Below, piece after piece: positions 5,309 to 51,291 of a stretch of DNA of 64,000 nucleotides. Source of the DNA: Nemertoderma westbladi (taxonomy: Eukaryota; Animalia; Xenacoelomorpha); assembly GCA_032718475.1 (NCBI GenBank), contig JAUCBJ010009151.1:62001-126000 (forward strand), given 5' to 3'. Below the pieces are notes generated by a model. The model ran no database searches, was not told the DNA's origin, and saw only the letters and a program-made list of their open reading frames with translations. How positions within the stretch are numbered: position 1 is the stretch's first letter; every line of letters starts with the position of its first letter. The position numbers were made by a program, and so were the translations under genes.

Positions 5309-5309
5309 A

Positions 5310-10210: not shown

Positions 10211-10342
10211 TGATGAATTATTTCACTATAGGATAGCATTAGTAGTATAACGTAAAAACTTTCGAAAATCCGACGCATTTTGATTAAGTCACAGTAATGT
10301 AATATGCCTACTCATATCAGTACACATAAAACCCCTAGTTAA

Positions 10343-10429
10343 TCTCGTGGCGTAGTGGTCAGATGGTTAAGGCATTGGTTGCATTACATAGGTTACGAGT
10401 TCGAATCCCAGTCGGGAAATTTGCATTTT
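10343..10429 (+). ncRNA. tRNA-like Pol III module (A box, B box) inside the BEL-1 LTR; second copy at ~30051-30137
   Basis: TGGCGTAGTGG and TGGTCAGATGGTTAAGG (D-arm/A-box-like), GAGTTCGAATCCC (T-arm/B box), flanking TCTCG/CGGGA pairing, T4 run downstream. No clean anticodon arm, so not called a functional tRNA. Confidence 0.65.
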
Positions 10430-10464
10430 GGGGCAATTTATTTTCATTTCATACAATTTGACAA

Positions 10465-10603
10465 ACCAATGAGGTGCGTACAACACATGGAACGATGAGT
10501 TAGGCCAATCATAGGGCATGGAATATCTTATTGCTCCAATGTGAGGCCATGGAATACTCTAGAAAGTTCTAGTAGATTCTATGTCCCAGATTTAGTATAT
10601 AAA
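10465..10603 (+). promoter_or_regulatory. LTR Pol II promoter: three CCAAT boxes, heat-shock-element-like array (10552-10579), TATA box (10596-10603)
   Basis: CCAAT..CATGGAA three times; GAA-ta-CTC-ta-GAA-ag-TTC-ta-GTA-ga-TTC; TATATAAA. Same motifs in the 3' LTR (30260-30311). Confidence 0.6.
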
Positions 10604-12416
10604 GGGCTGGTTTGCCTTTGGTTATCACTTATCTCTCTACACCATTCTTAGTTAGTACAACTTACGGTTCACTACTCTTGTTAAACTTGATTCATTCAGT
10701 TTATTATGTTTCTTGTTGAAACTATTTGGCAATTCTGTTTGATAAAGTTTTGTAAACTGTAAATATACTATAAACTTCTGAACATGTTTTTCTGCATTTG
10801 TCCAACTTTGGGACAGCAAAGCATCAGGAAGATGGCCGCCTAGACCGTTAGGCCGTCAGCAACGCAGGGAAAGGATGTCCACAACACGCTAGCGCCCACA
10901 TTAGCTTAGACCGCGCACCCCCTTCGCCCTTCGAAATGCTCCACTCGCCATGCAGCGCCCTCTTTATGAGGAAGGTAAGACTTTGTTTGATGCCCTTGCC
11001 CGCCGTAAGACCTATAGATCAGGGTAAGCGTGACGCCGCAAATTTAGGATCAAATAACTATATTTTGGCAGAACCCCCCCCCCCCCCCCCCCCCCCCCTT
11101 GTCAGTAGTACGAACCCCTGGGTTACCTGTATACCTCACAGGTGCGAATTATTGCCATTCGTCAGTACGCGAGTACACATTAGGTACGGACAGCATATGT
11201 TCCATAATTTAGTGATTCGTAGTACTGACTGTTTGGTACCGGTTCGCTTTGTAGAGCATACATTAGTACCCTACCCCCGCCTGAAGTTAGTTATTTGATC
11301 AGGCAAGGAGTATTTCTGCTACCGGCACACTGCTTGGCCTAGGGAGGTTTTATTAATATCCTACCGCGCCTTGCCACGTACTGATAGGTATTGCTGCTAA
11401 CTACCGCAGCAACAAAGTTCTAGAATCAAATTTGTATACCAGATCAGCTAACGTACAGTAGCAATTAACCCCTATTTCTTATCTTACAACCAGAATCTGG
11501 TATTTGTGCCTATCACGGGTGTAGTTACTAACACCGTGGTTGCCCAGTTGAGTTGTGGATAGGAAGAAGAGAGCTTTGACATCATTTGTAAGTATAAAGC
11601 TCTACAAAACGCGACTAGCTTATTTTAGTAGCTAGCGCACGGTATTATTTCGGTCAGAGAATTACCAAAACCTAGTAAATGATATACACCAAAATTGTTT
11701 TATTGTAACACACCCACACACACACGCCCTAAAACATATTTACCCTTAGAGTTCCTACTAGATAGCGCAATTTAGATTTAGGCAGAATTTATCTGTATTT
11801 GTAAATTAGGATCAGATATTTAGTTACGGCAAGGGAGCATTTCATCTTCGTTATTAAACTGTTGTTTTTCTGCGCATCAGTTATTGTTACATTTAGGTAC
11901 GACCTCTTTTAGGCTGATTCAGACAGGGGGATCAGTATTGTTACGCTAGGTCCGTAACCAACCTAGCTCGTATATAAACCATATAAATCACACCGCGGCA
12001 AGTTACTGTATTTAGGACTGTCAGCGATAGTTAGGATTCGCTGCGCGGGGATTGTTTTCCCGTGAGTTTGGTCTGTTACTGTAACTGTACATCTGCCATA
12101 CCGGTTAGAGGACAGGTATCCTTTTGTCTAGTACGTAGGCATTAGACCCGCCCACGTACATAGAATAGACACCAGGCTCTGCTCCTCGCCAGTAGTAGTT
12201 TGTGTATTGTATCTGTTTGTTTAGATATCCTGGACTGGGATTTGTTGTCAGATACTGTACGAGCCCGTTCCATTACTAGAGTCTTACAGTAAGATACATC
12301 GTTACTAGGATCTGGTAAGCGGTATACTACTGGACTTTACGGATAGAGATATTCTATAGCTTCGTATTTGTAGATTTGTAGGCTGTAGGGTAGTTCCTAC
12401 CGTAGAGGACACAACA

Positions 12417-12426
12417 GTGAGGTATA
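12417..12426 (+). promoter_or_regulatory. Non-tRNA primer-binding position GTGAGGTATA, complementary to LTR-internal TATACCTCAC (11130-11139)
   Basis: No TGG start next to the LTR; exact 10-nt reverse complement present in both LTR copies (11130-11139, 30835-30844). Confidence 0.7.
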
Positions 12427-13444
12427 TTTTATTTTATGAAAGTGAGAGATATACTTTGCAGTGGTATATGTTTGTTTACCTCACAACAGTGAGGTATATT
12501 TTATTAAATATCTTAACTGAAAGTGCGTGCGCACTTTACAGTGAGATATATATATATAAATATATATTGTTAGCTATTGTAAAAGTAGGAGATATTTAAA
12601 AATTTAAGGTTAGTAAAATTTAGTAATTTGTAGAACGTCCCCTGCTTCAGTAGCCTTTTAGGGTAGCTAGTACTTTTGTATTTAATATTTGACTAGCTAA
12701 TAGTTAGTTTGTAGCAATTTGTTTTACGCCGTGTGTGTGCGGTGTTACTTTTCGGTACTTGAAAAGGTACATAGGGTTTAAAGACCAAGTTGTATCGGTA
12801 CCTAGGAAGATTTTTCGTAGAGTAGAAGTAAAACTCTCACCTTCGACTTTTCAGGACTCAAGGACTCATTTCTGGACCGCTTCGAGGATTAGACCGCTTT
12901 TCGCAAAGTTTGGGAGACAAAAAATTCGTCCGCACCGCCGAAAACGGAACGACCCACGTCCGGTTTGTATTTGGGAATTTGTACGACTGGAAGATCAAAG
13001 GAACGTAAGTTTTACGACTCGTGTCGTTCAAACTTAAGAAAGCACAGTAGTACTCAAAATTTGTGGGTTTCACTGTCTATTAGTAGTGTTGTTGGTACTT
13101 ATTTTCCCGTTAGACATTGCTGTTTTGCCTATTATTTGTACTTGTTGATCTACATTTTGGTAACGTATACTGTTATCTCATTTATTCGTACAAATTTAGC
13201 CAGTAGGCTAGATTATTACTTATTTTATTATATACTTTGTTAATTTTATTTGTACCGGTTAGGGTATATATATCAAGGTAAGTTTGTCATTTGGACATTT
13301 CGACATTTCGACATTCTGACTTTGTTGATTTATTTGTACCGGTTAGGGTATATATATGCTATATATATACCGAGGTAAGTTTGACATTTCAACATTCAGA
13401 TATTTTGAAATTTTATTACCCGTACTTGATGTATATAATAAGAC

Positions 13445-14055
13445 ATGAGTGACACACCCCATTCGACTCGATACCCCCCTACCGACTATGACTCGTGCGA
13501 CCCGGACAGATCGACAGTAGACGAACCGAGAAGGAGAACCCGAGATTCTACCGATGTCACACCGCGTGCGTCGCCGGTACCCCGAACGGAAATACCGGAA
13601 GCCGCAACGCGTGGCGACGGCAGAATCGAAGATTTCCTTACCGTCCCGCAGACCAGATCGCGGGAACCGGACATGGTAAGTTCGACTGGAAGCCAGGAGA
13701 ACGTTATTAGGAGTATAGGAGGACACATGGCCCAGATTACTCGGAACCTCGGAGAAGGTTTTCGCTTTTTACGCGAATTAACCACCCCGATGTCGAGATA
13801 CGAGTTCTACACCTTACAGGTAAGGATAGAAAGTAGGGTACATGCCTCCGTAGATAAACTTAAAGGTTTACACGAACTTGCAGAGTTGCGTGGCGACAAC
13901 TTTACTCAAAGATAATAGATAAGTTGGTAAGTGCGAGAGAAAGCCTTATCCAGTTTAAGTCAGTAATAAGATTGGCTCAACAGGAGCAGTTCGACCAACT
14001 GCTAGGTGAGTCAGTTTCGGACGCGTTGTTACAACCCGAAGAGGAAGAAGAGTTT
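13445..14055 (+). pseudogene. gag: BEL-1 gag N-terminal part (frameshift near 13910), interrupted by a LINE
   Basis: ATG 13445; after a frameshift reads IIDKLVSARE...LLQPEEEEEF. Removing 14056-18141 joins it in frame to LRRCGVPIEEP of ORF 18070..21126. Confidence 0.75.
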
Positions 14056-17000
14056 AAGTTTTTTTTTAAGTTTATTGTTATTTATAGGAAAATGTTATAA
14101 TTAGAACCATCACCAAAGCACAGTTTAGTTGTAATGGAATAAAAAGAAAAAGAAAAAGAAAATGTGTATGCAGTGTGCGAGGCGGTGGGTTGGTAAGGGT
14201 TGCAGCAATAGCCAGGCTAGTCGTGGCTGCCAACCGACCAAGGGTAAATGTACTGTATATGTAACTAAGTATTATATATTTGAAAAAAGATAAAATAAGA
14301 ACTGTTATAAACCTTTAATAATTGTTGGTCAGGATCACAAGGAAATATAATAATTTAATTAACCATTTTACAATACACTGTAGTGAAGAAACAGTCCAGT
14401 CGCAGTGTATGTGAGAAGGAAATATAATAAGATAGAGCCAGACATATAGGGAGATATTGTGTAATGTATTATTATGACGTTACGTCATGTGTTCAAATAG
14501 GTATGTTTTAAATTGACGTTTAAATGAAAATTTAGATTTGCTAATAATTAGACTAGAGGGGAGACTGTTCCACAATACTGGCCCAGTGACTGATAATCCT
14601 TGGTGTGCTACATTGAGACGGGTTAACGGTACTACGAATTTGCCTAAAGTAGATGAACGTATATAAATCAATATCAGACAATTTAGTAAAAAAATTTGAA
14701 AGAGGGTGATTATTAGAAGATTTTGATATATCGAACATTAACTGGCCTAATTGTAATTCAAATATAGATTCGATTGGCAAAACATTTAGTGATTTGTAAA
14801 GTGGCACAGAGTGAGCCCGGTAGTCACTAAATGTTATGCAACGCAAGATTTTATTAACTTTAATTCTTAGTGGACGTGTTATTAATTTGCAGGCAGTACC
14901 CCAAGCAAGAATTCCAGAAGTGATGTAAGGATTAATTAAAGTATAATACGTAAAATTTGGCTTGGGAAAAAGTGTCTTAATTTATAAAAAAGTCCGGAGG
15001 ATCTAGATTAAGGATGTAATTTATATGCGTTTTCCAGCTCAAATTGTCATCGATAAAGATACCTAAGTACTTAGTGCTATTTACCTTAGTAATTTCATTG
15101 GCTTTAATTTTAACTTTCGGTAGTCCAAGGCAGTTTTTGTTACTAAAAATAGAGTATTCTGTTTTACTAAGATTAAGTGATAATGAGTTGTCTATAAGCC
15201 AGTCCGAAATTTTTTCCAGTTCAGTGTTTGTGTTGTTAATCAATAATTTTAAGTCTGAATTGAAGCACAGTAACGTCGTATCGTCGGCAAATAAAGTTGT
15301 CAAAAATTTGGATGCGTCCGGTAAGTCGTTCACATATAAAAGAAACAGCAATTGTGAAAGGACTGAACCCTGGGGCGTTCCGCAGGTTACCGGAAGAGTG
15401 GGTGAGATTATGCCATTTAAGGATACTGATTGTGTACGGTCTGTTAGAAAACTCCTAAGTAAAGTCTGGGGGGTGCCTCGAATTCCGTAAGATTCTAATT
15501 TTTTAAATAAGGGAGAGTGGTTCAGCGTATCAAACGCTTTTTTTAAATCTAGATAAATTACGCAGATAGATTCTTTTGAGTCAAGGTGAAATCAAATTTT
15601 TTCTGTAATTGTTAGAATAGCCGAAGCCGTAGAAATCCTCTTTCGAAAACCGAATTGTGATGCAGTCAAAATACAGAAACGATCTAAATAAGATTGGAGC
15701 TGTGAGTATATAACCTGTTCTAGAATTTTTGTAAAAACTGGCAATAATGATATTGGCCTATAGTTATTAGAATCTAGTGGATCACCCCCCTTAAAACATG
15801 GGATTATTTTAGATTGTTTAAGAGAAACTGGATAATGACCTGTTGTGATACATAGGTTAAATAAATATGCCAGATGAGGTGCAATGTGTTCAGCAGCAAT
15901 TTTTAATAATTTACTGGGAAAGTTGTCATTAGTAGCGCTGTTTTCATTTATTTGTAAAAGTAGGTAGTGAATTTCAGCTACAGAAGTTTCAATAAGAGTA
16001 AATGAATTCGAGTGTCGATGGTTAATGTGGCGGGTAGGGCATCGGTTAGATCGGGGTATTGTACTGGCAAGTTTTGGTCCAATAGTTGAAAAATGTTCGT
16101 TGAAAATAGATGCTATTTTATGGGGATCAGACGTTATTTTTGCCCCTACTTCTGTTCTGAAAGCAATTTTGGTAGGGCTTAGGGATTTCTTATTTTTGTG
16201 TAATACAGAGTTAATTACAGACCATGTCTTGCGCATATTTCCTTTGTTTTTTAAATATTCTTGATTATAGAATGATTTTTCAGCGGCTCTGATTACAGTC
16301 GTTAAATTATTACGATATGTTTTATAGGCTTTTTGGGTTTCAGAACACGGTGATTTAATATATTTTTCATATAATTTATTTTTTTTAGAAATTGATTTAA
16401 TTAGCAAAGGAGTTAGCCATGGTTTGCGTGCAATTTTTCTTTTTGTAATTATTTTTTTAGGTAAGTGTTTTTGGCATAATTGATCAAAAGAATTGTAAAA
16501 AATGTCGAATTTTTTATCTGTCGGTATATTATGTGATCGGTAAGCTGCGAGAGGTGGTAATGAAAGGTCGAGCAAAAAACTAAGTTAAATTTGCTATAAT
16601 CATAGCACATTTTAGTATTGGGCTGTTTGAAAAAAGCAGAATAATTATGAAATAACGCAAATGTTCCAAGGTGGTCTGTTGTGCCAATTTCTGATAAAAA
16701 AACGCCGGCAGTAGTAAAATCATTCGTAATATTAGTAATAATATGGTCAAGCGTTGAATTAGCACCGTGTACAATTCGAGTGGGTTTTATTATTAATTGG
16801 GAAAATCCGTATGATGAAAGTATCTGTAAGTATCGTGCACTATATGATGTCATTTTGTTTAAGTTAACATTGAAGTCACCAGTGAGGACGATATCTATAT
16901 TTTTATCAGATACTTTCGCCAATGCGGGTTCTAGAATATTTATAAAATTATTGTAATTGACAGATGGGGGTCTGTATATTACACCTAACACTAAGGACTT

Positions 17001-18138
17001 CTTGTTGGATTTTTTAATTTGGATCCATTTATTATGAATTCCCGACACAGTCAAGTCGTCTCGTTCCGTAAAGGTTAGCGTATCCTTAATGTAAATTCCC
17101 ACACCCCAACCGGAGCCTGAGGAACGTCCCTCTGGTCTGTCTGATAGTAGCGGTCCTACATAGTTGTCAAGTTTTAATTTACAGTGATTGTCTTTAGCAC
17201 CTACTAATGTGTCAGTAAAAGTGATAACATCAAAATCTTCGTCTAATGTACTTAAAAATTCAGCAGTGTAAGAAAGATTATTGTTTAGACTTCTACAATT
17301 TAGGTGATATACAGAAAAAGAGTTATGATGAGAACCTATACGCTCGATTTCACTGTTAAATTTAGTATCATTATAGTATTCGCTATTTCGCGCTAAATTT
17401 TGAATGTTATTATCCGGATCAATAGTAGCAAAACTAGGATTATCAGCATTTTCGTTGAGCAAGTATAAATCGTCGGAAATTCCGAAAATATCATAGTCGT
17501 TAGACGGAATATCGCTAAAAGGAAAAATCCCATGTAAACAAAAAATGCAGTAGTGACTCGTAAAAAACTGAGACTGTTCAAGCTCTGCGGTTTCTCCATA
17601 TGTCAGGCAAGTTCCACACTGCTGGTGATAACTGTTTCTACACACCGCGCATAAAATGGTATTATCGTTATTTTTGAATCCTGAAAAACAGAGAGCACAT
17701 GAATTACTACAATTAGAGTTCGTATCAATCTTCCCACCTGCAATAATGCCTCAGCTGACAGCCTGCACACTGCATACTGTCGCTTAATACAATGTATATA
17801 TATTATACACTATGTTATAATATATAATATTAATAAATCAGTACATCCCGTTAAGCCCTGACCATATATGGGCCACTAGTGATATTGTAAGTCAGTTAAA
17901 TTAATTCTGTAAATTATTCCAAGAGTTAATAATAATTTGAATTGCCTTTCTGGATGACCAGATTAGGGGTTTCCTAGGATCCTATGCGTATTAATTTCCA
18001 TCACAGTCCAGAGAGTTATAAGGATTTAAAGAGGGAGTAATTGGCGAACTATTCTGGCGTTGTTGGAAGGTGGTAACGGCGTCGATTTCGTCGACAACAA
18101 TCTACTGCCTGGATGGGAGATTAGGGACGCTCACCAAT
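14056..18138 (-). mobile_element. CR1/L2-group (Crack/Daphne-like) LINE nested in BEL-1 gag
   Basis: AT-rich block with PHD-APE-RT coding remnants; 3' end AATAAACTTAAAAAAAAACTT on minus; only TTT duplicated at the junctions (14053-55 and 18139-41). Confidence 0.85.
14480..17750 (-). pseudogene. LINE ORF2: PHD finger, APE endonuclease and reverse transcriptase; multiple frameshifts/stops
   Basis: CALC..CAVC..HQQC..CIFC (PHD); YHLNCRSL, GVIYRPP, GDFNVNL, TLDHII, TDH (APE); NYRPISLLP, QFGFRK, GTPQGSVL, LFADDTT (RT) across ORFs 16449..17645, 15592..16575, 14977..15351, 14553..14846 and 14480..14671. Confidence 0.9.
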
Positions 18139-18141
18139 TTT

Positions 18142-21126
18142 CTTCGTAGATGCGGCGTACCGATTGAAGAACCGGAAGTGGAACCGCGAGGGACGACGGA
18201 AGTTCTTACTACGGAAGGCTCGCGAGCCTACCAAAATCCACCAATGGATAGATCATTCGTTAGCATGCGGAGCGACATTGGCGACATTAGTAGAACAGCG
18301 TCTGTAATTACTCGACAACAACAGGAGGTTGCACGCCGACAACAAGTCGTCGAGGAAGAAGCGCAACAGTGGATGGCACAGATCGCCATCGAGGGAGAGA
18401 AACAACGTAGAGAAGATGAGACGAGAATTGCGCAACTCAAGGCGCAAGCCGAAGTCGAAGCATCGGAGATGAGAAGATTAGCACGACAGAAAGAGGCATC
18501 TGACGCACGTGCTCAGTTGGAGGCACGGCAAATAAAATCACGTTTAGCTATACAGGAAGCAGAGTTAGCGGCACAACAACAAGTAGCGGATCGACTCGAA
18601 AGGGAGATGCAACTACAGTTCGAACTAAATCGTAGATCGCGCGAGGCAGCGAACGCGCAAGCGTACCTTGAACTCGACGCGAGAGATAGATCTATAAGAT
18701 CGCGAGCTGGACACGACTTGTCTGCCCTGGATCGCATGGAAGCTCGATATCGCGGAATTCAGAAGCGAATCGAGGAAGGAAGTGTGGGAGCGATAGATCG
18801 AGGAGAGGAGTTCATCGAGGATTACTGTAAACGTTTTCCCCAAGTTATTCCTATGCTCAAACCCACGACTCCGATAAAACCAGTCTTTGTTACGAAACCT
18901 AAGGAAATAACACCTGTGCGCTCGACGCAAGGTAGCAGGTTTGTTGTGACGGAAATACCGCAACCTAGGGCGACTTCATCGCCAATTTTAGCAGGTAACG
19001 TAACTAGTCCACCTACAGTAAGTCGTAGTCTACTTGTAGGAAGAGAGGAACCTGCGTTTATGACAATTAAACAGGTAAGTAAGCCATTAGTAGTTAAACC
19101 TGTGACGTGCTGTGCGAACCCAGTTATTTATAGACCGACTACGAAACCCGACTACTTTACTCGACCTTTGACACAATGTTCGACACAACCTACGACTTCG
19201 TGGAAGGCTTGCGAGCCTGCCGAACAACGGAGGAGAACGGATGTGGGTAGTACCCACGGGATCGAACAACGTTTAACGAGACCTACGACTTCGTGGAAGG
19301 CTTGTGAGCCTACCGAACGACGGAGAACCGTAGATTCTGGACCCCAACGAGTGAGACAAAAGGTAATACGCCGGACGCGAACATGCCAGCCACCTTATCC
19401 GGACGACAGCGACTCATCCAGTGACTCGGAGTCGACGGAACGGGAAATATTCCGTACTGGAGCGGCAGCGACAGCGGATTACAAACGAGAGGAACGATCG
19501 ACGAACCCCTACATCGACAATCCTCCACGAGAAACACCCCAGCAGAAACCCACGTTGCAACCAGTGGAAACGATCAGCGCCAAACAGTTCGCCGAGATGA
19601 CGGACCGACTAGCTCAACTCGAAGAACGACTTGAAGCGCAACCGTCGGATCAATCACGAACCAGCGTGAAGTTAGAACAACCTAGACAACATCGACCACC
19701 AAGGCGAGAACAGGAGACTAGACAGACTCCGACACATCGAGAAGAAGATCCCGTTAATAATTCCTACCGACGAACAACACGCGGAAGGGAACGACTGGAC
19801 GACGCCACCGAACAGGGACGCGGACAGTTGGATTTGGTTAGTGAGATTGCGAAATTCGGGGCTAGACACGGATTACCGGCACAGCAACCGCCGAAGTTCT
19901 CTGGCAACGCGAAACACTGGCGCACACTGGTAGACTACATAGAGTCCCAGATCACTAAGTGTGCTTTCACCTCGACGGAGAAGTTTAATTACTTGCTCCT
20001 AGTCCAGTCTGGTGAGCCGAAAGGATTAGCGGAAACCTTTATTGGTGTTCCCGATGCCTTTGAGTTGGCGTACGACCGTTTGTATTCGATTTACGGCGGT
20101 AACGTCGCCATAGCTAAATCCATTATCGAAGACCTCTGTAGAGGAGGCAGCATTTCGAAACCGATCGATCTTCTACGACTCGCGGACGAAATAAAAAACG
20201 CTATAGGGACTTTACGGTCCATTGGACAACTCGAGTACGCTAACGCACCGACGGTTCTCATCAGGATAATCAGTCGACTTCATCATCGACTTCGACGAAA
20301 ATGGCGACGCATCGAGTACCAGCGTGAAGAGGCCGGCGGGCTATTAAAACTCACCGACGTCTATCAACTGATTTCGCGGGAGGCCGTTATCGAGACTCAA
20401 TCGAATTATACTGATCATCATATCGGGACAGAAGGGATAGCTATTTCTGCGCCGACTCGGACTAAACCGTTTCCGACGAACGCGAAAGCCGTTACCTACA
20501 ACACCCCTACTGAGACTTCTAAAGTACTGACGCCTATCGGCACCATGCAGCCACGACAACAGTTGCCGGCGGACTTTATGGGATGCTCATATTGCGAGCG
20601 GGACGGCAGAAACCATAGCGGACATAAACTTCGTGGATGTCGCGCTTTTAAAGAGTTAGGAATCGAGGAGAGGAGACTCCAAATCCAATCTTTAGATTCT
20701 TGCTGGAGATGTACCAAGCCAGGACACGTCCGGAAGGATTGCCCGAGCGACGATACATGTCCTCTGTATGGACGTAACCATGACACGTTACTTCACACTA
20801 CTAGTCATACTCCGACCAGACGCTTTCGACGAGAGCATCCAGATAAAGCGGCTAGATGCGACGCTCCTCACAGAACTAGAACTAGAACTAGAACGCTCCT
20901 CACACAGAACCAATTGAAAGGGTTTAGCGTGATTCCTATAAAGATTACTGGAACCCGAGGGAGCAAGCGTATATACGCTATCTTAGACTCTGCGTCATCA
21001 CACAGTTATGTCGACGAACAAGTAGCTGACGTGGTTACGGACATGAGTCACGGTAAGACTGCTCAGTATACTGTTGGACGGGCCGAATATGAACAATTAC
21101 CTCATGGGAGTCCTAATGAGTTTTAG
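18142..21126 (+). pseudogene. gag: BEL-1 gag (coiled coil, DUF1759-like, three Cys/His knuckles) plus start of aspartic protease
   Basis: LPAQQPPKFSGNAKHW, LRRKW, CSYC..H..C, CWRCTKPGHVRKDC, HDTLLH; protease YAILDSASSHSYV; truncated by an internal deletion near 21060. Confidence 0.88.
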
Positions 21127-24100: not shown

Positions 24101-24807
24101 ACGAAATAACCAGAGCTTTAAAGAAGTTGGACCAAAACCAGATTTCCGAGGAACTACATCCTCACCGTATTGTTTGGTATTTTAATACTCCAGACAGTCC
24201 GTGGAGAGGCGGCGTTTGGGAAAGGCTGATTGGTTCAATTAAGACAGCTATGGCTAAAGTAATACCAACGCAACACATATTAACAGACGACCAACTGACG
24301 ACGTTACTAATAGAAATCGAAGCAGTTTTAAACACTAGACCGATCGCTTTGATCCCAGACAATAACGACGCCCAGTTTGCCTTGACACCAGCGCACCTGC
24401 TTATGCAGGCGCCGACGACATTGTTGCCCATTTCGGTACCCGTTAATAGCGACGGATACGGCAACAAAGCTTGGAAAATCACTCAATTACTTGCAAATAA
24501 ATTCTGGGAAATATGGCAGAAATATTATTTGCCCTCTATTTCGACGAGAACCTCTTGGTATCTTAATACCCGATGTTTGAGACGTGGTGACCACGTTTTA
24601 TTGGCTGAAGCCAATCTGAAAAGACGGTTTTGGCTGACTGGAGTCATTTTGACCACGCACCCTACATCTGGTGTAGTGAGAACAGTTACTGTAAGGACTA
24701 TCGACGGTCGTACCATAGACAGACCTGTACAACGTCTCGTGCTCCTTGAGGAGACTAGAAACGAGACAGGTGACGACTACAAACCTCCACCCAATATTAG
24801 TAAATAG
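21074..24807 (+). pseudogene. pol: BEL-1 pol: RT (N-terminus deleted), Pao RNase H, low-complexity linker, integrase
   Basis: LLDGPNMNN, DVEAMFHQV, FYVDDGL (RT); HSFSDASKDG, YWTDAT, NPADIASRG (RH); H..H..CMIC, GIDSFGP, CDQGTN, GGVWERLIGSIK (IN); stops at 22466-68 and ~22660, frameshift ~23375. Confidence 0.93.
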
Positions 24808-39917: not shown

Positions 39918-40485
39918 TGTGATCCTGTGATCCCTATTTATCCGGTTTTGGTTATCTCGCCTACGTGTCCCCGCCATATGTGTGAAAAGAGTTCTAATGT
40001 TATTGAGTTACTCTCTGTTGTTGGATCGTATGTATAGATATATATATATAAGATAAAGTATAAGCACAGTGATTGTAATAACTGAGTGAATGAGTACCGG
40101 TAGGATGGTTGAATGATGGTGGCAGTGGACGGTGACAAGAGTTACCGTTCCGCCCTAACTGAACTGACTAACTGAGTGAATAAATGACACTGTAACTGAC
40201 AATATATTGCACTGGTTGGCCGTATTACATTACTCAGTGGATGCATGCCCCCCATTGGCTAATAACTCACTTCTCGCCTTCCATCTCTCTGGGAGTGTTT
40301 TCCCCCCCGCTACTGTTATTCTCTCTCTTGGAGGTATAACCTCTGACCCCCTTTGTGTGTTTCTTTGGGGTTTGTCATCCCCGTTTATTGGGGTGACACG
40401 AGGTTGATTGGTAATCAACCTCGTGCTCCCAATATTGCTTAAAGCTAACTTTGTAGGGTGGCTAGCGGAATTTAATTCGCTAACA
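39918..40485 (-). repeat. BEL-2 3' LTR
   Basis: TG...CA; direct repeat of 50714-51291; adjacent C-run 40486-40493 is the PPT on minus. Confidence 0.95.
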
Positions 40486-41321: not shown

Positions 41322-43755
41322 CTAATCCCGGTCGTCGACTCCTTGGGCGCTGGTGTTATTGGCTCCCGGTATCGCTTCGCGGGTGGCCCCTCCGAGTGGC
41401 CCTGTTGTCTCCCCCTGGTGGCGTCCCATAGGATCACTTTCATCGCCCGCGGCACATGCTCCGCCAAGAAATCTCTGAACTCCCCTCTGTTCTGTGGTGT
41501 CCGTCCACCTGTCCAAATACCTCTGCGTATTTATCACCCCGGCATACGACGCCGCCGTCGCTACCTCCTGGTAGGTAAACGGAAGTCTCCATTTGATAAT
41601 CTCCAAGTGGGCCTCCTGGTTGATATTAAAGAAGCCCCACCGGAACTCCTGGGCCTTCATACGTTGCCGAGTCATGGCCCCGACGTCGGCCCACTCCTCG
41701 AAGATCCTAAACTTCTCTTCGTCGTCCATCCAGTCGCACTGGCGTCCGTAGTGCCCCCGGAAGCTGCACTTCGAACATCGGTTGTGCAACCGTGGACATG
41801 CCCCCATCCTGTGGCTCGACTCGCGGCAGTAGAGACAACTAGTCCCTTTCTGGAACCGGTACAGGCAGCTCCTTTCCTGGTGGGTCTGTCTCCCACAGTA
41901 ATCACAGTCGAGCACCAATGTCTCCCACCCCACGTCGTCTTTCATCCCAAGCGATCTCCGCGGTCTGTGGAGTCGCTGGTAAGCGAACTTCTGGACATTA
42001 GCGTCCCTGTCCACGTCGATCTCCTCGCCCCTCCCGGGCATCGTCTCCCCGAATACTACCCGTGGTGCCATTCCCGGTTGCTCGCCCAACCTGATGGTGC
42101 TCCCCGCGAAATCCATCGCCGGCTCCTCATGTACCCAGGCCCACTTGCCGGGTCTATCCCAGAAGGCTCTCGCCCCACTGGCCATCACCACCCTCCCGCC
42201 AACCCAGTCCGTGTCCGAGTGGCCGATCCTCCCGGTGGGCGGCATCTCTCCGAACTCGTCTTCATCCTCGTCCTCCTCTGGGAGTGGCTCCAACCCCGGT
42301 ATCCCGGTGGACCCGCTGTGTCCCTTTCCACCTTGGCTCTCGCCCGTAACTTTCCATCCTTCCAGCTCCCCTAGCCTCCTTAGCAGCTGATCGCCCTCGG
42401 CGCCCGCTGGTATGGGCGTCGTCTGCAATCCCAATGTCGACTGTTTTGGTGATCCCACCGTCCACCCTAATTCTCGCCCTAGAGACTCCCCCGAACTCCC
42501 TGACGACGTCCAACGAAGTTCGTCTAAGGCCGCCTGTTCCTCGAAGCCATAGCTCTGCGCTCTAGCTTCTTCCTCCCTTTCCTCTGCCTCTCTCCTTTCC
42601 TGTCTAGCGATTTCTTCCAATCGCTTCGCCTCTCGTCTATCCGCCTCTAGCTGCTCCCATCTCTGATATGGCGTATCTACCTCCCTGTCTACCAGATGTC
42701 AGCAGTTATAGTACACTGACTCGCCCTTCAGCCCCGGGTGGTCTACCAGACCCTCGAAAGCCGTCTTGAAGGCTCTTCTGTAGCTTAGGGGTGATCCCGA
42801 TAATAGGAATGCCATTGGTTCTTTCTCAATAACCACGGTCATGAATAGGTTAAGCAAACCCATCATTATCCTGAGGATCCTGCAGGATATATCGCTTCTG
42901 ATATACCTTTATCGCTCCTCTCCGGAATTGATACACCTCTTGTTTTCCTGGTCTCGCTCCCTACTTCAGCGAGTTTGCCAAGTCCGCTCCGTACTCCTCT
43001 CTGAACTTACTCCAGTCCATTGGTTTGTGACACACGAGCCCCATTAGCTGGCCCATCGCCACCGCTCCACAATGGCCTGAGTTCTCCACTAATCCCAGCC
43101 CGTCTGGTGCTGTCATAGCCATGTAGATCGTCTGCATATCCAGAAGGTTGGGGGTGTCCGGACCGATGATTCTCTCCGCATTGTCGCGAATCGCTGATCC
43201 CACTTTCGTCGTCGACTTCTCTCTCACTATGGTTTGCTCCACCTTTGGCAACCGGTTCAACTTCGGCTCGTCCTTCTTTCCATATGTCCCCAGATCGAAT
43301 AGGAATATATCCCCATTTGGCACGGCCAAATGTAGGAGTATTGTTCTGGTCGACCCCGCCGATCCTCTCCTCGAACCCTCCTCGTCTTCCACAGTCCCCT
43401 CATCATCTAGGACCATGTATCCTCCTCTGCTGACGGACTCTACGAACCTCTTCCAATCCTTTCTCGGTGGCTCTCTTGCGTACTTCGGAATCCCGAACTT
43501 CGCTTCGTCTCCTTTCACCACGTAGTGGAAATGCTCGAAGATCGCGTTGTCCAGCGACGGCGTCCCGTAGGTCCCGACCAGTCGCTGTTCGTGCACCTCC
43601 CTGAAATGGTCCTGTAGCGCTCGCGCTTTGTGACCTCTCTCTAACCGCTCGTAGTATCCCCTCGTCTTCTCTTCCGGATGCCTCTCGGTGAAATCCACCA
43701 GTATCTCCTTTCCTCCTAACTCCGCCTTTCTCTTTCGGACAAGCTTCCCTGCCAT
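41322..43755 (-). pseudogene. BEL-2 extra 3' ORF: DEDDy exonuclease-like domain plus three CCHC knuckles, homologous to the BEL-1 3' ORF
   Basis: GYMVLDDEG, LHLAVPNG, LPKVEQTIVREKSTTKVGSAIRDN, LLDMQ; in-frame read-through of the stop at 42961-63 gives QKRYILQD (YxxxD); ORF 41322..42620 has CDYC..H..C, CLYC..H..C, CSKC..H..C. Confidence 0.75.
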
Positions 43756-44234
43756 CTCGAACTCTCCTCAATCGCTCACCTGTAAGGTGGTGCCTTGCCA
43801 AGGCGCAGTACAGATGAGTGATAAAGTTAGGATGGTCTGTACAGTTCGACAATGGCCTATCTCTTACTTAACTCCGAGTTTTCGCCTAATTTTCCCTACT
43901 TAATTTCTAAAACTGCTAAATTGTACCCTAAATTGTAATTTTGTCCGTTACTTTAATTATGTTCCAGAATATTTTTTCTACTGTTACCATAACTTGTCTA
44001 ATTTTCTAATTCTATTTTATTTTTAATATTTAATCTAATCCTATTACTGTGCTACTACTTCTGCCAGTGGATTATTCTACTTTATAATCCGCATTCTGGC
44101 CTACTCTGTGGGCTTGTGCAGTACAACAGTATGCGTCGCGTGGCCTACACGATTTATCCAGCTGTACTCACGTGCCCCCCTCTCGCTACTCACTACTAGC
44201 TAATATTTATATTATACATGCCCTTCTACCACTA

Positions 44235-44680: not shown

Positions 44681-44920
44681 CCTACTTACACTGACTACGT
44701 ACGTACTATTACTTTCTCTTTATTTTTTTATATTTTTATTTGTATGTGGGAAGGGCGTCTCGCCCTCAATCCCACCCCCCTCAGTCCAAAACTTGAACGA
44801 CTAAACTCAACTCCACTAAGGTGCGCCCTCAAGCAGGTAATACTTCCTACCGCACCTCTACTGATCCAACTCTTTCATCTTCGCCCCCCTTTAGTCTAAC
44901 TTATTGGACGACTCAGCGAC

Positions 44921-47900
44921 CTAAGGGGTGATTCTTCCAGCAGGCAACTCCCCCACTGTCCCTGTAGGTCCTCTAATTCTCTGTCCCACTCTCCTTGTCA
45001 ATTCCAGGTCTCTTGGAATTGAACTTCCCTTCTTTAAATTTGGTAAGTGCTGCCTGCTCTCCATGTCTCTAATCTCCTCGTAGTCGTCCCTTGACGGCAA
45101 AGTGCCACCCTTCAACTCATTGTTTGGCGGTATAATGCTGCCCCTGTTGTCATCTTTACTCTTACATGCCACCTCTGCTGGCCTCCCTCTTAATATATGC
45201 ACTGGCATTAAAGGCCTCGACGACCCCCATTCGTCCTTCGGCATACACGATGTCTGCATATGTAATGCCCCCTCGCACTCTGGCAGTCCCGCATGCGTAT
45301 GCAACACGCCTCCTACTTTCCTGACTCCTTTATTATGTTTACTCATGGGCTTCTCTGCCCCTGGTCTAATCCTCTCACATCCTCTCCCTTTCCATCTTGT
45401 CTTCTTACTCGACCTCCCCCTTGTCGGTATGCCTCTCAACTGGACCGGCGTCTCTTCCAGACACTCCTCTGAACACTCCTCCGGACACTCCTCTGGACAC
45501 TCCTCCAGACTATTGTCCTCCTGACACTCCACTGGACACTCCTCCGGTTTGTCCTCCGGACATCTCGCTGTCCGCTCCTCTCCATCTCCATACCGATACT
45601 TGCTGGGACCCTTGTTCCAACCCATTGTCTCTAAATCTTCTGCATCCAAGCCATTCTCCTCTGCCCACTCTCTTGGTGTTGCTTCCACTTCTAGCTGTCT
45701 CCCCCTATCGCCCGTCTTTGGCCTCTCCTCTACCCCCTCAACAGTCCCTGGCACCATGCACCCTGAAGTCTCGGTTACACTGAATGGTATATTGGTTCTG
45801 ATTGGGCCGGTTAGCGTCCACCCGAATGGTGTTAAAATCGCCACCGGGTCACACTGCCTGTCTTCGCCGAAGACCGTTTGCATTCTCTCGTGGGCCGTCG
45901 GGCAGTCCATTCCTACTATAATGGATACCTTCCTAACGTCCACCTCTGGGATTGAGAAGTCGATACTGTCCAGGAATTTATATTGTTCGACCTCGATGTT
46001 GGTTGGCCGCCTGGCGTTGATATTTATCGACTCTATCACCTGGATGGGGTCGATGCTCGCCCCATAGTCGCATCCTGGTGCTATCGCTGCTATCGCGCAC
46101 CGTCCGGTCCTCATCTCCAGGACCTCATCTTTGCTGGAGATGGTTGTTACCGCCATTCTACTTGGCCTCGTTCTCAATCCTATCTCTTCGGCCACCCAAT
46201 TCTCGACTAATGTGAAGGCTGCTCCACTGTTGACCAGCATCAGTGTGGTCACTGATCGATTGCCTTCCCCGATCACTCGCACTGGTACTACCCCAAGTAG
46301 TACCATTCCTCTCTTCTTTTCCCCTACGGTGCTCGTTGCCATCGTCTGACCTTTACTTTGACCGAACTTAATCGGCGTTTCCTTGCATTGATTAGCTCTA
46401 TGTCCACTCATCACACATCGTGGGCAGATTTCATTTCTTCTCGCGTATTCTACCTGATCTTCCCTGGGTAGCGCTTGCCAGTACCTGCAGTTCATGGTCT
46501 GATGAAGTGCATTTGTATGTAATTGGCATTTGCTCTTTGGGTTGTAGCCATCCTTATAAAGTGCGTTGCATATCGCACTTATGTTTGTACCAAAGTCCTT
46601 ACTATTCTTATTGTTTGGGTTCGGCCTACTGGGCGTGCTGGGGTTATGTTTATTTGCGTTGTTATTTTTCCCCTGTCCGCTCCATGATGTGGTCTTACCC
46701 CCGGCTACTTGTGGACTGGCAGTCCCCTGCGTTGCTGTGTACGGCAGTGATTGTCTGAGCTTTGGCAATGCATTCGACGCGTTGTGTTCTGGTTTCGGCC
46801 TGTGGAAATGGGTCTTTGGTCCCTTTCCCAGGCTATCCTCGCTATAGACTGGGTCCGTTATTAGTTCAGATTCATAATTTAAGAAGCTCGACATTTCTTC
46901 TAAACCTGGTTCCGCACCCTTCCTGTCTCGAGTGGAGAAAGCGATCTTCCTCCACTTGTTGCGCAACCACATTGGCAGTGCCTGCGCTATCGTGGTGATG
47001 TTGTTGGACGCGTTAAGTTCGTATGGCGCGTCCAGCGTCTTTAGCACGATTAGCGCTTTCTCGACTTTAACGGGGTTATCCTGTAGGCCACCCGATTGTT
47101 ATACCTCTTAGGGTTTGCCGGATGATCTTGGCCGGGTGCCCGTATTCCCTGTCTAGTGCCCTCCATGCTGTCGTGAAGCCGCCCTCGATGCCCTGGTATT
47201 GACTCACGATGTCGTATGCTGGGCCCCCTGTATATACTTGCAGATACTTTAGGCACTCCGCTTGTGTCAAGTTCTTCATTAGTATCTCATTACTATACAT
47301 GCGCCGAAACTGTAGGTATTCTTCCGGCCTACTTCCATCGAATTTAAACGGTTCCACGGGTGGTAACTCGATCCTGGTTTTTAAGGCATCGATTAATGTA
47401 GCCATTCCCATCGCTTGCACTTCCAATGGGTTCGATGGATGCTGTATAGGTTCTCCCGTTGGGTGCGGTCCGTTCGTCCTGCCTGGCGCTTTTCTTTGAC
47501 TTGGATATATCATCGGGGGTAGCAGCCCCCTCCATATTTCGGTGTCGCACGATCTATTCTCATCCAAGGGGTTCGATATTCTTGTTCCTATTGGGTATAT
47601 TGTTGATATTGTGATGGGGGAATGTCACCCTGTCCCTCCCCCCCCCACCGGTATGTTTGGTACTGGGGTTGATGTTAATATATTGGGGCCCATGCACCTA
47701 TCCGCAATAAATCTCCCCTCCCCTGGATATATGTTATGTCCTTGCATGCTGTAGTCATACTGCTGTGCTGGTACCGGTATAGGCCTATCCACTTCTGGCC
47801 TACCTGCCGGTATGTACTCCGCGACTTCCGGGTTTAATCCCGTCGTCCATGCTATCCTATCGCCTACATTATCTCTCCCAGCATGGCCTATAGTATGTGC

Positions 47901-50654
47901 AGTAAGGCCTACAGTATGTCCTGCAGTCTGTATGTGTCGCTCGGGATCAAAGTTTAACCTTCTCGAATAATCCTCCCTGCGGCTACTGTATTCTCGATCG
48001 GCAGGTTAATCCCGTCGGGAAGTTTCTCTTCGATCCCCTCTACTGCTCTCGTCCTCCTGCCGGTACATCTTGTACCCCTCTCTCTGCGCGTAATACGCCT
48101 CGTCAGGTCGCGTCTCCCCGGGACGACGGCAATCTCCCGAAGTTCGACCCCACTGACTCTCTGTCTCCATCTCTACTACCGACGGCTCACTATCCGTCCT
48201 CACTCTCCTGTCATTCGCGACGACACTTCTTCTACTCTCTTCCCTTCTTCGTCTCTGCAGTGCAGTATCCCCGTTCGCGAGATCTCTCGTCGACCTCCCG
48301 GTTAAACTCCACTGTTCTTCTTCCCTCTTCTGATTGGGCTCGACGCTTCGTCGCCCGCCCTCTCGCGACGTCAACCTGTCTCTCTCTGCTCGATCGCACG
48401 CCGCTGGGGATACTCGCAATCCCCCTACTATTCTCCATCGCCGGGTGCTGCGGTTCACCTAATTCGCCCCGCGCATTATCCGCCGACGCCAGTGGGGCAT
48501 TCTTTGCCCCCCCTCCTCTCGCCGCTAATCTCTCGTTTTGGGGCTCCTATAGCCCCCCCCCCCCCCCCCCCCCCCCGCTCGCCACCTATCACTCCACCGC
48601 CTCTTACTTCACTTCTACACCCCTCTCTAGTCGACACACTAACCCTACTGCGGCTGGGTCTATTCACCCCCGCCTCTCCCTCTACTACTGTGTGGCCTAC
48701 CATGCCACCCTCGGGTTGACTCAACCCCGCCACTTCCTGCCTACTAACTATGTGGCCTACCAGGCCACCCTCGGGTTGACTCAACCCCGCCACTTCCTGC
48801 CTACTAACTACGTGGCCTACCAGGCCCTCATTTGCCGGGCTATGCAATGCACGTCCGCCCCGTTCATATTAATAGCACCATTACCAGTATTATCTGTTAA
48901 ATCAATTAAATCCTCCAAATCAATTAAATTATTTTGCACACCTAGATTAGAAACGGGATTATTTTGTTCGTTCGAAATAAGATTATTTGAATTATTTTGC
49001 GTAATTATATTATTTGACTTATTTTGCGTAATTATATTATTTGAATTATTTTGTAAATTCAAATTTAGATTATTTGAATTATTTTGTAAATTCAGATTTA
49101 GATTATTTGAATAATTCCCTACATTTATATTAGAATGGGTCGGATTTAAATTACTACCATCGGACAAAATGTTATTTCCTGCAACAAAGGTTTGATTAGG
49201 GTTATCCACTACGGTACTATTAATATTAACGTCTTCTACTGTATTATTATTATTACCCCCCCCCCCCCCCGCCCGCACGGTCACACCAGTCCTGGGTCTG
49301 TCGTGTGGTCCCTGTAAGTGGGGCATTAATAAACGTTTCCCTAACTCCCGGCTCCTCGTAAATACTCGAGCCAGCCTTGCTCTCTGACAGCCCCATCTGC
49401 GCCAGTTCCAGTCTGCGCCTCTGTTTGGCTTGATATTGCATAAGCCCCCTCAACCGGGCGTGCATATCATCTCACACACGCTTCCCCGTTGCCTCTCTCT
49501 CCCACTCCTCCCGCATACTATGCTCGGCCACTTCCGCCTCTCTCGCAACTCTCTCCAGTCGTCTCGCCTTGCGCTCTTTTCGCTCACTCTGCTCTCTCGC
49601 CTCACGCTCTTCACGTCTATTCTGCTCTCTCGCCTCACGCTCTTCACGTCTATTCTGCTCTCTCGCCTCACGCTCTTCTAGCTCTTTCCTTTCTATCCTC
49701 CCTATTTCCTCACACTCCTTAAAACTTCTCGCGACCTTTTCGGCTCTCTCCTCTGTTCTCTCTAGCCAGTTCTTTCTCCTTCTCTAATAGCGCACTCCCT
49801 TCTTCCAACTGTCTCTCTAATTCTCTCTGGTCTAGCACCGCCAGGTCGAGCTGGCACGCCAGATCTATTTCCATCACCCGTCTTACTTTTGCGGAGGATG
49901 TAGCAGACTTATCGGTTACGACAGACTCCCTCTGCCTTCCCGTCCTACTAACTTTCCCCCGCCTCCCGGAATTTTCTCCGACCGACGAGACCGAATCCTT
50001 GGCGTTAACCTCGGATTCGCCCTCCTGCGGTCCCCTCCAACCCACTAATTTTATTCCCCGGGCATCGACTAAGTATGGCCCTATGTACACTACACCAGGC
50101 TCCATACCCCTACATTCCCATAGTTCAAACAGTTCGCTGGCAACCCCTCTTGCTCTCTCATCGGCTAGTTCTCCCTGCCCAAAGCGCACTAAGTAATCAA
50201 AGTGTTTGTTCGACTCACCTAGCCGCTTCTCTAGCTTCACCTGGTCTATTTGGGCCCCTCCTTTGACTTCTCTTAGTTGCTTCCGGGTCGCGGCGTAGGC
50301 TCGTCGGAGTCGGTCGCTGACCCCAACGTCCTCGTCGCCGACGTCTCCTTTATCCCTCCGTGTCTGGCGTCGTACCGGCGGCCCCACCATCGCCGTTCCG
50401 ATGGGCCATCCAACGCCCTCGGCCTGTGGCTGGCTGGTGACATCGGCACGTCGACCGCCGCTGTGTGTCGACTCGTCTCTCTCCCCCCTCGACTCGTCCT
50501 CTCGTTGTAGACGGCCCCCCTCAGTTTGGATTGCCGGATCGTCCGTAGTCGATTGGTTCGGCGTCGTGGGTCGGTACCATCGCGTCGCGGTCTCGCGGAT
50601 CGTTAGATCGCCGTCCGGGGTCTGCGGCGGTGTCGTCTCTCCTTCTCGACTCAT
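44921..50654 (-). pseudogene. gag: BEL-2 gag-protease, multiply frameshifted
   Basis: ATG 50654; IELPPVEPFKFDGS (DUF1759-like), LRNKWRK, CQLH..H..C, CPRCVMSGHRANQC; protease LMLVNSGAAFTLV (catalytic D appears as N), IIVGMD, TPFGWTLTGP. Confidence 0.85.
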
Positions 50655-50703
50655 CTTTTGGCTCTTTAGTCGGTGGCTGGTAACTGTCAGTTAGTTCGGC
50701 TTG

Positions 50704-50713
50704 CTCTTGTCAC
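50704..50713 (-). promoter_or_regulatory. Non-tRNA primer-binding position GTGACAAGAG, complementary to LTR-internal CTCTTGTCAC (minus strand of 50936-50945)
   Basis: Plus strand has CTCTTGTCAC at 50704-50713 abutting the LTR and GTGACAAGAG at 50936-50945 and 40132-40141. Confidence 0.72.
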
Positions 50714-51291
50714 TGTGACGGGATCCGAGAATCCCGATTTATCCGGTTTTGGTTATCTCGCCTACGCATCCCCGCCGTGTGTGTGAAAAGAGTTCTAATG
50801 TTATTGAGTTACTCTCTGTTGTTGGATCGTATGTATAGTATATATATATATATAAGATAAAGTATTAGCACAGTGATTGTAATAACTGAGTGAATGAGTA
50901 CCGGTAGGATGGTTGAATGATGGCGGCAGTGGACGGTGACAAGAGTTACCGTTCCGCCCTAACTGAACTGACTAACTGAGTGAATAAATGACACTGTAAC
51001 TGACAATATATTGGACTGGTTGGCCGTAATACAATACTCAGTGGATGCCTGCCCCCCATTGGCTAATAACTCACTTCTCGCCTCCCATCTCTCTGGGAGT
51101 GTTTTCCCCCCCCCGCTACTGTTATTCTCTCTCTTGGAGGTATAACCTCTGACCCCCTTTGTGTGTTTCTTTGGGGTTTGTCGTCCCCGTTTATTGGGGT
51201 GACACGAGGTTGATTGGTAATCAACCTCGTGCTCCCAATATTGCTTAAAGCTAACTTTGTGGGGTGGCTAGCGGAATTGAATTCGCTAACA
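50714..51291 (-). repeat. BEL-2 5' LTR
   Basis: Direct repeat of 39918-40485 except for the terminal ~25 bp. Confidence 0.95.

Follow-up and report, generated by a model that had tools for sequence, protein, structure and literature searches.

Primer sites complementary to their own LTRs, and an exonuclease-like third gene, in BEL/Pao retrotransposons of Nemertoderma westbladi

According to the ICTV profile, reverse transcription in Belpaoviridae (BEL/Pao elements) is primed by host tRNA, through an 18-nt tRNA-Arg/Gly site (PMC8742986). Self-priming is described for Tf1, Tf2 and Tj1 of the Tf1/sushi group (Ty3/Gypsy) and is predicted in plant Tcn1 and TAR (Copia) (PMC6317226, PMC4600332, PMC5341516). 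The criterion applied in one of these sources is a run of at least 10 bases that starts 0-5 nt after the 5' LTR and matches the complement of a stretch within it (PMC6317226). A different kind of addition, a third gene encoding a DEDDy exonuclease, is reported in the Juno and Vesta LTR elements of bdelloid rotifers and the Athena/Terminons; these rotifer ORF3s have an altered acidic motif, and putative roles in 3'-end processing or in silencing have been proposed for them (PMC5408684, PMC6431247). Dada transposons also carry a DEDDy domain (PMC3706591).

The window considered here, 64,000 nt of contig JAUCBJ010009151.1 from Nemertoderma westbladi, contains two elements, E1 and E2, that a sequence-only reading took to represent a BEL/Pao lineage in which self-priming is coupled to an exonuclease ORF. 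We consider it probable that E1, E2 and a wide clade of relatives would prime with their own RNA, and that the third gene (ORF3) would encode an accessory RNA-handling protein not needed for this. The presence of ORF3 in BEL/Pao, and the separability of ORF3 from the self-priming signature, are observations made on this window. The literature searched yielded no published description of such a signature in BEL/Pao.

Two decayed BEL/Pao elements

Judged by their sequences, E1 (plus strand) and E2 (minus strand) are both decayed BEL/Pao retrotransposons, with the following parts:

10211..12416, plus: E1 5' LTR, 2206 bp, TG..CA ends
13442..13915, plus: probable N-terminal piece of E1 gag, before the LINE, assigned by position
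14050..18000, minus: LINE nested in E1 gag, with PHD/RING-like start, endonuclease and RT; ends approximate
18022..24807, plus: E1 coding block from gag-protease to integrase, in several frames
18022-21126, plus: E1 gag-protease
21047-22468, plus: E1 RT/RNase H
22661-23377, plus: E1 low-complexity spacer between RT/RNase H and integrase
23338-24807, plus: E1 integrase
29919..32121, plus: E1 3' LTR, preceded by a short purine tract
50714..51291, minus: E2 5' LTR, 578 bp, TG..CA ends
44921..50690, minus: E2 gag-protease, in pieces
39918..40485, minus: E2 3' LTR, with a G-rich purine tract before it

The two LTRs of E1 are identical at 2165 of 2200 aligned bases, and those of E2 at 549 of 568. 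The target duplications, 5 bp each, are GCCAC for E1 (10206-10210 and 32122-32126) and GGCTA for E2 (51292-51296 and 39913-39917), so that TG..CA ends, target duplication and purine tract, all structural traits of BEL/Pao, are found in both. Pfam matches in E1 are DUF1759, Peptidase_A17 (E 2e-39), DUF5641 and integrase H2C2, and in E2 are DUF1759 and a weak match to an aspartyl protease. The LTRs of E1 and E2 are unrelated (best blastn E 0.54). The sequence-only reading, which saw two BEL/Pao-type elements with unrelated LTRs, was right in this.

The gag of E1 is interrupted by the LINE of about 4 kb, near whose edge, at 14046, mapped sequencing contigs show a drop in depth and loose ends; the piece upstream of it (13442..13915) found no match in Pfam. 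A search of E2 for RT, RNase H and integrase found none of them. Perhaps E2 was mobilised by the enzymes of a partner, or perhaps it lost pol after insertion. E1 has 494 BEL/Pao relatives at E<=1e-20 and sits on a long branch of a quick RT tree. Host range and 38-46% RT identity place the clade probably on the Suzu/Sinbad/Sailor side, the tree itself having no named references.

Primer sites and their complements in the LTR

No TGG, the mark of a tRNA site, occurs 0-4 nt from the 5' LTR of either element, and the ten bases that abut the LTR are the exact complement of a 10-mer inside it, both points in agreement with the earlier reading:

12417-12426, plus: E1 primer-binding site GTGAGGTATA, abutting the 5' LTR, no spacer, no TGG
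11130..11139, plus: E1 candidate self-primer TATACCTCAC, second copy in the 3' LTR at 30835-30844
50713-50704, minus: E2 primer-binding site GTGACAAGAG, abutting the 5' LTR, no spacer, no TGG
50936..50945, minus: E2 candidate self-primer CTCTTGTCAC

In E1, positions 12417-12426 are the reverse complement of 11130-11139, and in E2, 50713-50704 are that of 50945-50936. When the match must begin at the base that directly follows the LTR, dinucleotide shuffles give a 10-nt complement 49 times in 10,000 for E1 and three times in 10,000 for E2. A looser search, which permits a spacer of 0-4 nt and splicing, leaves E2 significant (1/500 shuffles) and E1, taken alone, not significant (55/500). Splice-built primers were looked for in the two elements and not found; both primers are contiguous. 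The single A(A/T)TAAA of the E1 LTR lies downstream of the self-primer, which is therefore probably within R, in which case the 3' end of the RNA would carry a copy of it. In E2, pairing with the leader is predicted to continue upstream as far as about 50980 (-32.6 kcal/mol), and related LTR contigs of the E2 type have two conserved islands, one at the LTR end and the other at 50913-50980, with no variant listed among them at the ten positions of the self-primer. One contig from a sequencing run, counted against self-priming in E1, joins 10990 to 11172 and bypasses the E1 primer site (the intervening letters are not given). A tRNA-like stretch in the E1 LTR was dismissed, as neither ARAGORN nor Rfam scored it.

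The survey of relatives covered 98 related loci, of which 18 have a definable 5' LTR end, 10 have an open one and 70 have none that could be defined. With a 0-4 nt spacer and splicing allowed, a self-complement of 10-14 nt is present in 17 of the 18 (0-13 of 500 shuffles per locus), contiguous in five and formed in 12 only after removal of a GT-AG intron, such as those predicted in L005, L008, L012, L014 and related loci. No TGG occurs 0-4 nt from the 5' LTR in any of the 18, nor in any of the 20 elements when E1 and E2 are included. The loci with open 5' LTR ends gave best matches of 8-11 nt, within the range of shuffles, and none was counted (L011 was not covered). An own-LTR complement of 10-14 nt is thus found in 19 of 20 elements, compared with eight of 372 swapped pairs of PBS and non-sister LTR. 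The letters of the primer site vary from family to family, with pairing to the element's own LTR maintained. Positive relatives are spread across the whole quick RT tree and include L012, a member of the subclade in which the gags of E1 and E2 both find their best match. The signature of self-priming noticed in the two elements therefore stands as a sequence signature, but it is not confined to them and is wider than first thought.

The lack of a tRNA site, together with an own-LTR match at the place where copying starts, makes it likely that E1 and E2 prime with their own RNA. The transcript would fold so that a segment of the R region pairs with the site just after the LTR. This segment, which ends in AC in most members, would be spliced together in many relatives and is ready-made in E1 and E2. 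The element's own RT/RNase H might then cut the RNA 3' of the duplex and free the primer, as in Tf1 and Tf2, whose mechanism (PMC5341516, PMC4600332) is the basis for the proposed cut. Of 19 elements, only two have a TATA box 26-31 nt before the primer, and most have no TATA box; in E1 some 530 nt separate the primer from the nearest strong one upstream. The TATA-to-primer distance was thus uninformative and does not point to a primer at the very start of the RNA, as in Tf1.

Might the pairing instead be a structural or regulatory RNA element, serving packaging, dimerisation or a switch, with a host tRNA fragment or some other RNA as the true primer? The last six letters of the E2 primer, which presumably resemble the end of the anticodon arm of tRNA-Asp, were counted in favour of this idea. 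So were the ICTV's description of the family as tRNA-primed (PMC8742986) and the half-tRNA primers of Copia lineages (PMC6317226). However, in 19 of 20 elements the pairing begins 0-4 nt past the LTR, at the very point where a primer has to stop; the letters that pair vary by family, tracking the element's own LTR rather than a fixed tRNA; and in 12 loci a canonical GT-AG junction creates the match. A purely structural or regulatory role, with another RNA as the primer, is, in our estimation, distinctly unlikely.

The third gene and its distribution

ORF3 is intact in neither element, each copy being interrupted by stops or changes of frame:

25468..29285, plus: E1 ORF3 region, four pieces
26929-26952, plus: E1 ExoI-like YMFYDIEG
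27187-27213, plus: E1 ExoII-like KIGSGVRDD
27520-27540, plus: E1 ExoIII-like QYYLAIE, Glu at the ExoIII acidic position
28132-28311, plus: E1 knuckles, the third without its last Cys
28366-28458, plus: E1 shared C-terminal motif
41322..43767, minus: E2 ORF3
43767-42961, minus: E2 exonuclease-like ORF
43419-43396, minus: E2 ExoI-like motif
43206-43180, minus: E2 ExoII-like motif, Asn where Asp is expected
42903-42877, minus: E2 ExoIII-like YQKRYILQD, beyond a stop
42698-41322, minus: E2 knuckle ORF
41906-41736, minus: E2 three complete CCHC knuckles
41702-41619, minus: E2 shared C-terminal motif

These motifs are labelled ExoI-, ExoII- and ExoIII-like by comparison with known DEDDy motifs and by alignment to an RNase D profile. 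The sequence-only reading had described a homologous exonuclease with three CCHC knuckles, placed after pol in both elements. The homology is weak but real (0/1000 shuffles for the exonuclease-like part, 0-1/1000 for the knuckle part), while the exonuclease call is modest; three complete knuckles are found in E2 but not E1; and the position after pol holds for E1 but not for E2, where ORF3 follows no match to RT, RNase H or integrase.

ORF3 is a plausible accessory gene of the DEDDy type, an identity to which its motifs and weak profile scores modestly point. The order ExoI D-x-E, ExoII D, ExoIII Y-x3-D is kept in both copies, with one acidic position altered in each. Against the RNase D profile (hhalign), ORF3 of E2 aligns collinearly over 122 columns at E 0.002, a score equalled by none of 100 shuffles, and that of E1 scores E 0.054, within the shuffle range (6/100); a two-row alignment of the two reaches 17.6, below the column-shuffle maximum of 27.0. 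An ESM Atlas feature match leads to a PF01612 cluster (0.91), with 151 of 256 features shared, under the usual 170. No match to ORF3 was found in Pfam, in PDB sequences or by HMMER searches, nor any homologue in a length-limited, word-based search over 5.8 billion proteins, in which the queries were the exonuclease part of E1 and the knuckle part of E2, or by phmmer over 1.84 billion representatives (with a 760-aa E1 piece as the only query). Plasmids and phages gave only matches at E 8, and viral contigs none. AlphaFold models came out at pLDDT 30 and 35, too low for use, and the fold search made with them gave no match and carries no meaning. One might conclude from the empty libraries, the E1 score and the altered acidic residues that ORF3 is something other than an exonuclease, or else a relic without catalytic activity that does no more than bind RNA, its motifs partly chance. 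We regard this as rather unlikely, in view of the E2 score and the Atlas features, and since the residues that two copies only 30% identical have kept are those of ExoI and ExoII, in order.

The relatives lack ORF3. By tblastn it was found in 0/80 and 0/18 related loci, and an ORF3 HMM run over six frames of the 98 loci gave a best E of 3.6. The gap from integrase to LTR is 53-371 nt in 14 loci, compared with 5139 nt in E1, and none of the 18 assessable relatives carries ORF3 or has space for one, in a sample whose short contigs disfavour long elements bearing it. A loose motif pattern matched in L008 and L010. Both matches were judged to be chance, since tblastn and the HMM found ORF3 at neither locus, and the gap after integrase in L008 is 203 nt. 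A third ORF3-bearing element was looked for, and none was found beyond E1 and E2.

The proposed coupling is thus not supported, and what was found is the outcome that the sequence-only reading had itself named as refuting it: ORF3 is absent from all 18 assessable relatives, 17 of which have the self-complement. Since the clade as a whole is self-complementary, finding this trait in both ORF3-bearing elements is uninformative on coupling, and self-priming is likely shared across the clade and independent of an exonuclease gene. In the E1/E2 branch specifically, ORF3 might perhaps shorten an R-containing RNA in the 3'-5' direction until it reaches the duplex, with the knuckles annealing the strands, and so replace or aid the RNase H cut. 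A nuclease with knuckles fits this task, both ORF3-bearing elements have a contiguous, spacer-free primer set back from the predicted start, and a primer in R would leave a copy at the RNA 3' end. But five of the relatives with the same signature and no ORF3 also have contiguous primers, each ORF3 copy deviates from DEDD at one acidic position, and DEDDy ORF3s recur in unrelated retroelements (PMC5408684). Also, the gags of E1 and E2 score 79-92 bits to other elements and 12.6 bits to each other, so a single coupled lineage is not demonstrated. We consider primer trimming by ORF3 very improbable; if real, it would be the first case of a retroelement encoding a dedicated nuclease for its own RT primer, a claim that we hold to be equally doubtful.

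Returning to ORF3 as an accessory gene, it may encode a DEDDy-type 3'-5' RNA exonuclease, or a pseudo-enzyme, joined to RNA-binding knuckles in an Rrp6/Air-like combination. It might have been gained in the E1/E2 branch and might act on RNA 3' ends, either shielding or processing the RNA of the element or blunting small-RNA silencing.

Comparison with known systems

E1 resembles Belpaoviridae in its gag-PR-RT-RH-IN order, BEL/Pao Pfam domains, TG..CA LTRs, 5-bp duplication and purine tract. It differs in the length of its LTR, 2.2 kb compared with 0.2-1.2 kb in the ICTV profile (PMC8742986), and the third gene of E1 and E2 is exonuclease-like, not env-like. Moreover, E1, E2 and 18 of 18 relatives are without the tRNA site of that profile, so that membership rests on pol and gag.

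The E1/E2 clade is like the Tf1 type in having no tRNA site and at least 10 bases just past the 5' LTR that complement its own LTR. By its domains, however, it is BEL/Pao and not a Ty3/Gypsy chromovirus; it would work alike without being a member, and many of the BEL/Pao relatives would build the primer only by splicing. Clade-wide priming from the own LTR, if true, would mean that self-priming arose independently once more, in a clade spread over many animal groups, and would free these elements from the supply of tRNA and from silencing by tRNA fragments. Splice-built primers, if true, would tie replication to host splicing.

As in rotifers, the third gene is exonuclease-like, follows pol and has an altered acidic motif, the comparison being one of described features. 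Here, however, the host element is BEL/Pao, and the exonuclease-like part is followed by three knuckles and a conserved C-terminal motif. The orphan exonuclease-knuckle ORF3 of E1 and E2 extends to BEL/Pao the observation of nuclease cargo in rotifer elements, and suggests a repeated function in RNA-level counter-defence or processing.

Two decayed BEL/Pao elements in a satellite array

The window consists of a 39-bp satellite array that several retroelements, four in number, interrupt.

Features of the window (coordinates, strand, description)
10211-32121, +, element 1 (E1): 2.2-kb LTRs, 98.4% identical; target duplication GCCAC
51291-39918, -, element 2 (E2): 0.57-kb LTRs, 96.7% identical; target duplication GGCTA
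10206-10210, insertion-site duplication of E1
39913-39917 and 51292-51296, insertion-site duplications of E2
57096-60197 (region 57090-60200), LINE breaking the satellite at TAGCCAC
1483-5309, RT element with 8-bp duplication ATACCAAC, elsewhere in the 39-bp satellite unit
63562-63661, assembly gap, a run of 100 N within satellite

Three of the insertions (E1, E2, LINE at 57096-60197) interrupt the satellite at the same TAGCCAC stretch. As the sequence-only reading had it, E1 and E2 are two BEL/Pao elements (Pfam assigns both) with LTRs unrelated in sequence. The coding parts of E1 (gag-protease, RT/RNase H and integrase) are spread over several frames, and a LINE of about 4 kb interrupts its gag. 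E2 has only gag and protease before the third gene, ORF3. The same reading placed a homologous ORF after pol in both elements; the homology holds, but it missed that E2 lacks RT and integrase, neither being found by tblastn of E2 with those of E1.

Low-complexity coding spacers of 12-nt period, similar to each other and on opposite strands, occur in E1 (22500-22930; rich in Pro-Asp-Ser, after RNase H) and E2 (45440-45610; rich in Pro-Glu-Cys, after protease). The U3 of both E1 LTRs contains a tRNA-like stretch (10345-10415, 30053-30123) with the look of an A-box and B-box, unmatched by ARAGORN or Rfam.

Primer sites complementary to the LTR

Neither element has a TGG after its 5' LTR. Instead, an LTR-internal segment, the putative primer, is perfectly complementary to the ten bases adjoining the LTR, and here the original description stands for both. 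Dinucleotide shuffles produce such a match in 49 of 10,000 cases for E1 and 3 of 10,000 for E2; under the more permissive search applied to the relatives, the E1 match by itself falls short of significance (55/500 shuffles). A longer LTR-leader duplex is predicted for E2 (-32.6 kcal/mol). In E2-related LTR contigs from three samples, the LTR end and 50913-50980 are kept while the LTR middle diverges, and no variant is listed at the ten primer positions.

The primer-site motif recurs three to four times in the E1 leader (12417-12550), which includes a perfect hairpin (12477-12498, TACCTCAC-AACA-GTGAGGTA) that sets primer and site side by side, perhaps a record of fold-back during reverse transcription. 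Since contig depth is low over these repeats, they and the hairpin may be peculiar to this copy. A point against the E1 match is a contig of sequencing run X4 that apparently skips 10991-11171, including the primer site. Strong splice donors stand at LTR positions 765 and 814 of E1 (window 10970-11150). Downstream of them, a poly-C tract runs up to a CAG that lies 24 nt ahead of the primer, and CAG/GT follows the primer at two bases, so that the primer may be part of an internal exon of 36 nt.

A search with E1 RT/RNase H gave 494 relatives; the 120 listed are 32-46% identical and show no precomputed exonuclease domain. Of the relatives, 29 were aligned with E1, and this alignment served to retrieve 98 loci: 80 from metagenomes (the best 80 among 513 confirmed) and 18 from genome assemblies. 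The latter (L081-L098) belong to contigs assigned to genome bins of bacteria and archaea, probably through contamination of those bins by host-animal DNA. Comparison of both LTR copies defined the 5' LTR end in 18 of the 98 (approximate in L043, L048, L065 and L090, poorly defined in L052).

No TGG lies within 0-4 nt of the 5' LTR in any of these 18, and in 17 a 10-14 nt stretch that begins 0-4 nt past the LTR is complementary to the element's own LTR. The complementary LTR segment is contiguous in five; in twelve it arises on joining across a GT-AG intron, 77-697 nt long.

Loci with candidate primers split by a predicted GT-AG intron in the LTR
L005, L008, L012, L014, L048, L064
L075, L081, L082, L086, L090, L097

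The split primers, 11-14 nt long and with canonical GT-AG, are complete only at the exon junction; most have AC as their last two bases, and the spacer between LTR and site varies from 0 to 4 nt. Per relative, 0-13 of 500 shuffles reach the score. When LTRs were swapped, at least 10 nt matched in 8 of 372 non-sister pairs, as against 19 of 20 own pairs. Because three pairs are close sisters, the cases represent about 14 independent lineages, spread across the RT tree.

ORF3 and its separation from the self-priming signature

ORF3 lies before the 3' LTR in both elements and is broken in both. The two copies share a motif order (D-x-E, K-x-G-S-x-x-R-D, three knuckles, a C-terminal motif), and shuffles rarely equal their similarity (0/1000 for the exonuclease-like part, 0-1/1000 for the knuckles). 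Of the three CCHC knuckles claimed for each, the third in E1 lacks its last Cys. Among the ExoI-III motifs, the ExoIII position is Glu in E1 and the ExoII position is Asn in E2.

By sequence, ORF3 is likely of DEDDy exonuclease type. Its Atlas feature match to a PF01612 cluster is 0.91, and E2 aligns collinearly over 122 columns with a profile built from 58 RNase D-type domains (0/100 shuffles reach the score; E 0.002). Against this type, E1 falls within shuffle range (6/100), and a two-row E1+E2 alignment scores below its own column shuffles. Searches of Pfam, of PDB sequences, of 5.8 billion proteins by word index and of 1.84 billion by HMMER gave no match to ORF3, and its predicted folds are too poor for fold comparison. 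The Atlas clusters nearest the knuckles are CCHC and Air2-like proteins, all below 0.9 and leads only.

One might expect, from the proposal of a single BEL/Pao lineage whose exonuclease may make the primer, that the two traits travel together. They do not: 17 of 18 relatives are self-complementary and ORF3 finds no match in any of the 98 loci, therefore the self-priming signature exists, and is widespread, without the exonuclease. In 14 loci 53-371 nt separate integrase from the 3' LTR; the figure is about 200 nt in L052 and about 400 nt in L086, compared with 5139 nt in E1. In L082 and L090, where integrase is incomplete or absent, 1076 and 775 nt are left after RT. The sequences thus show a potential for pairing, its position, its specificity for the own LTR and its independence from ORF3. 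E1 and E2 need not be one lineage: the gag of each scores 79-92 bits to P0012, another element, yet only 12.6 bits to that of its counterpart. Each sits on a long branch close to the subclade of P0012 and L012, and L012 has a spliced primer and no ORF3. That ORF3 helps priming in the E1/E2 branch is improbable. The reverse test covers two ORF3-bearing elements, the search having turned up no third, and the short contigs of the loci favour short elements.

Comparison with known systems

The features of E1 and E2 are real; the proposed coupling of exonuclease and priming is not supported. Judged from sequence, Tf1-like self-priming is a rather probable mechanism in these BEL/Pao elements. Folding of the element RNA would bring R to the primer site, and the primer would be freed by RT/RNase H, by analogy with Tf2. 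In Tf2, RT/RNase H does free the primer (PMC5341516). Most elements with a poly(A) signal have the candidate primer upstream of it. A TATA box stands at a fitting distance in only 2 of 19 elements, too few to establish a Tf1-like primer at the 5' terminus.

Belpaoviridae are primed by tRNA according to the ICTV profile (PMC8742986), whereas E1 and E2 have no TGG and a site complementary to their own LTR. Neither self-priming nor an exonuclease ORF in BEL/Pao was found in the literature searched, though Repbase, GyDB or subscription journals may describe them. The best reading of ORF3 is as accessory cargo whose targets would be small RNAs or the 3' ends of RNA, and rotifer Gypsy-like elements carry cargo of the same kind. 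In BEL/Pao it is probably an orphan DEDDy-like knuckle ORF.
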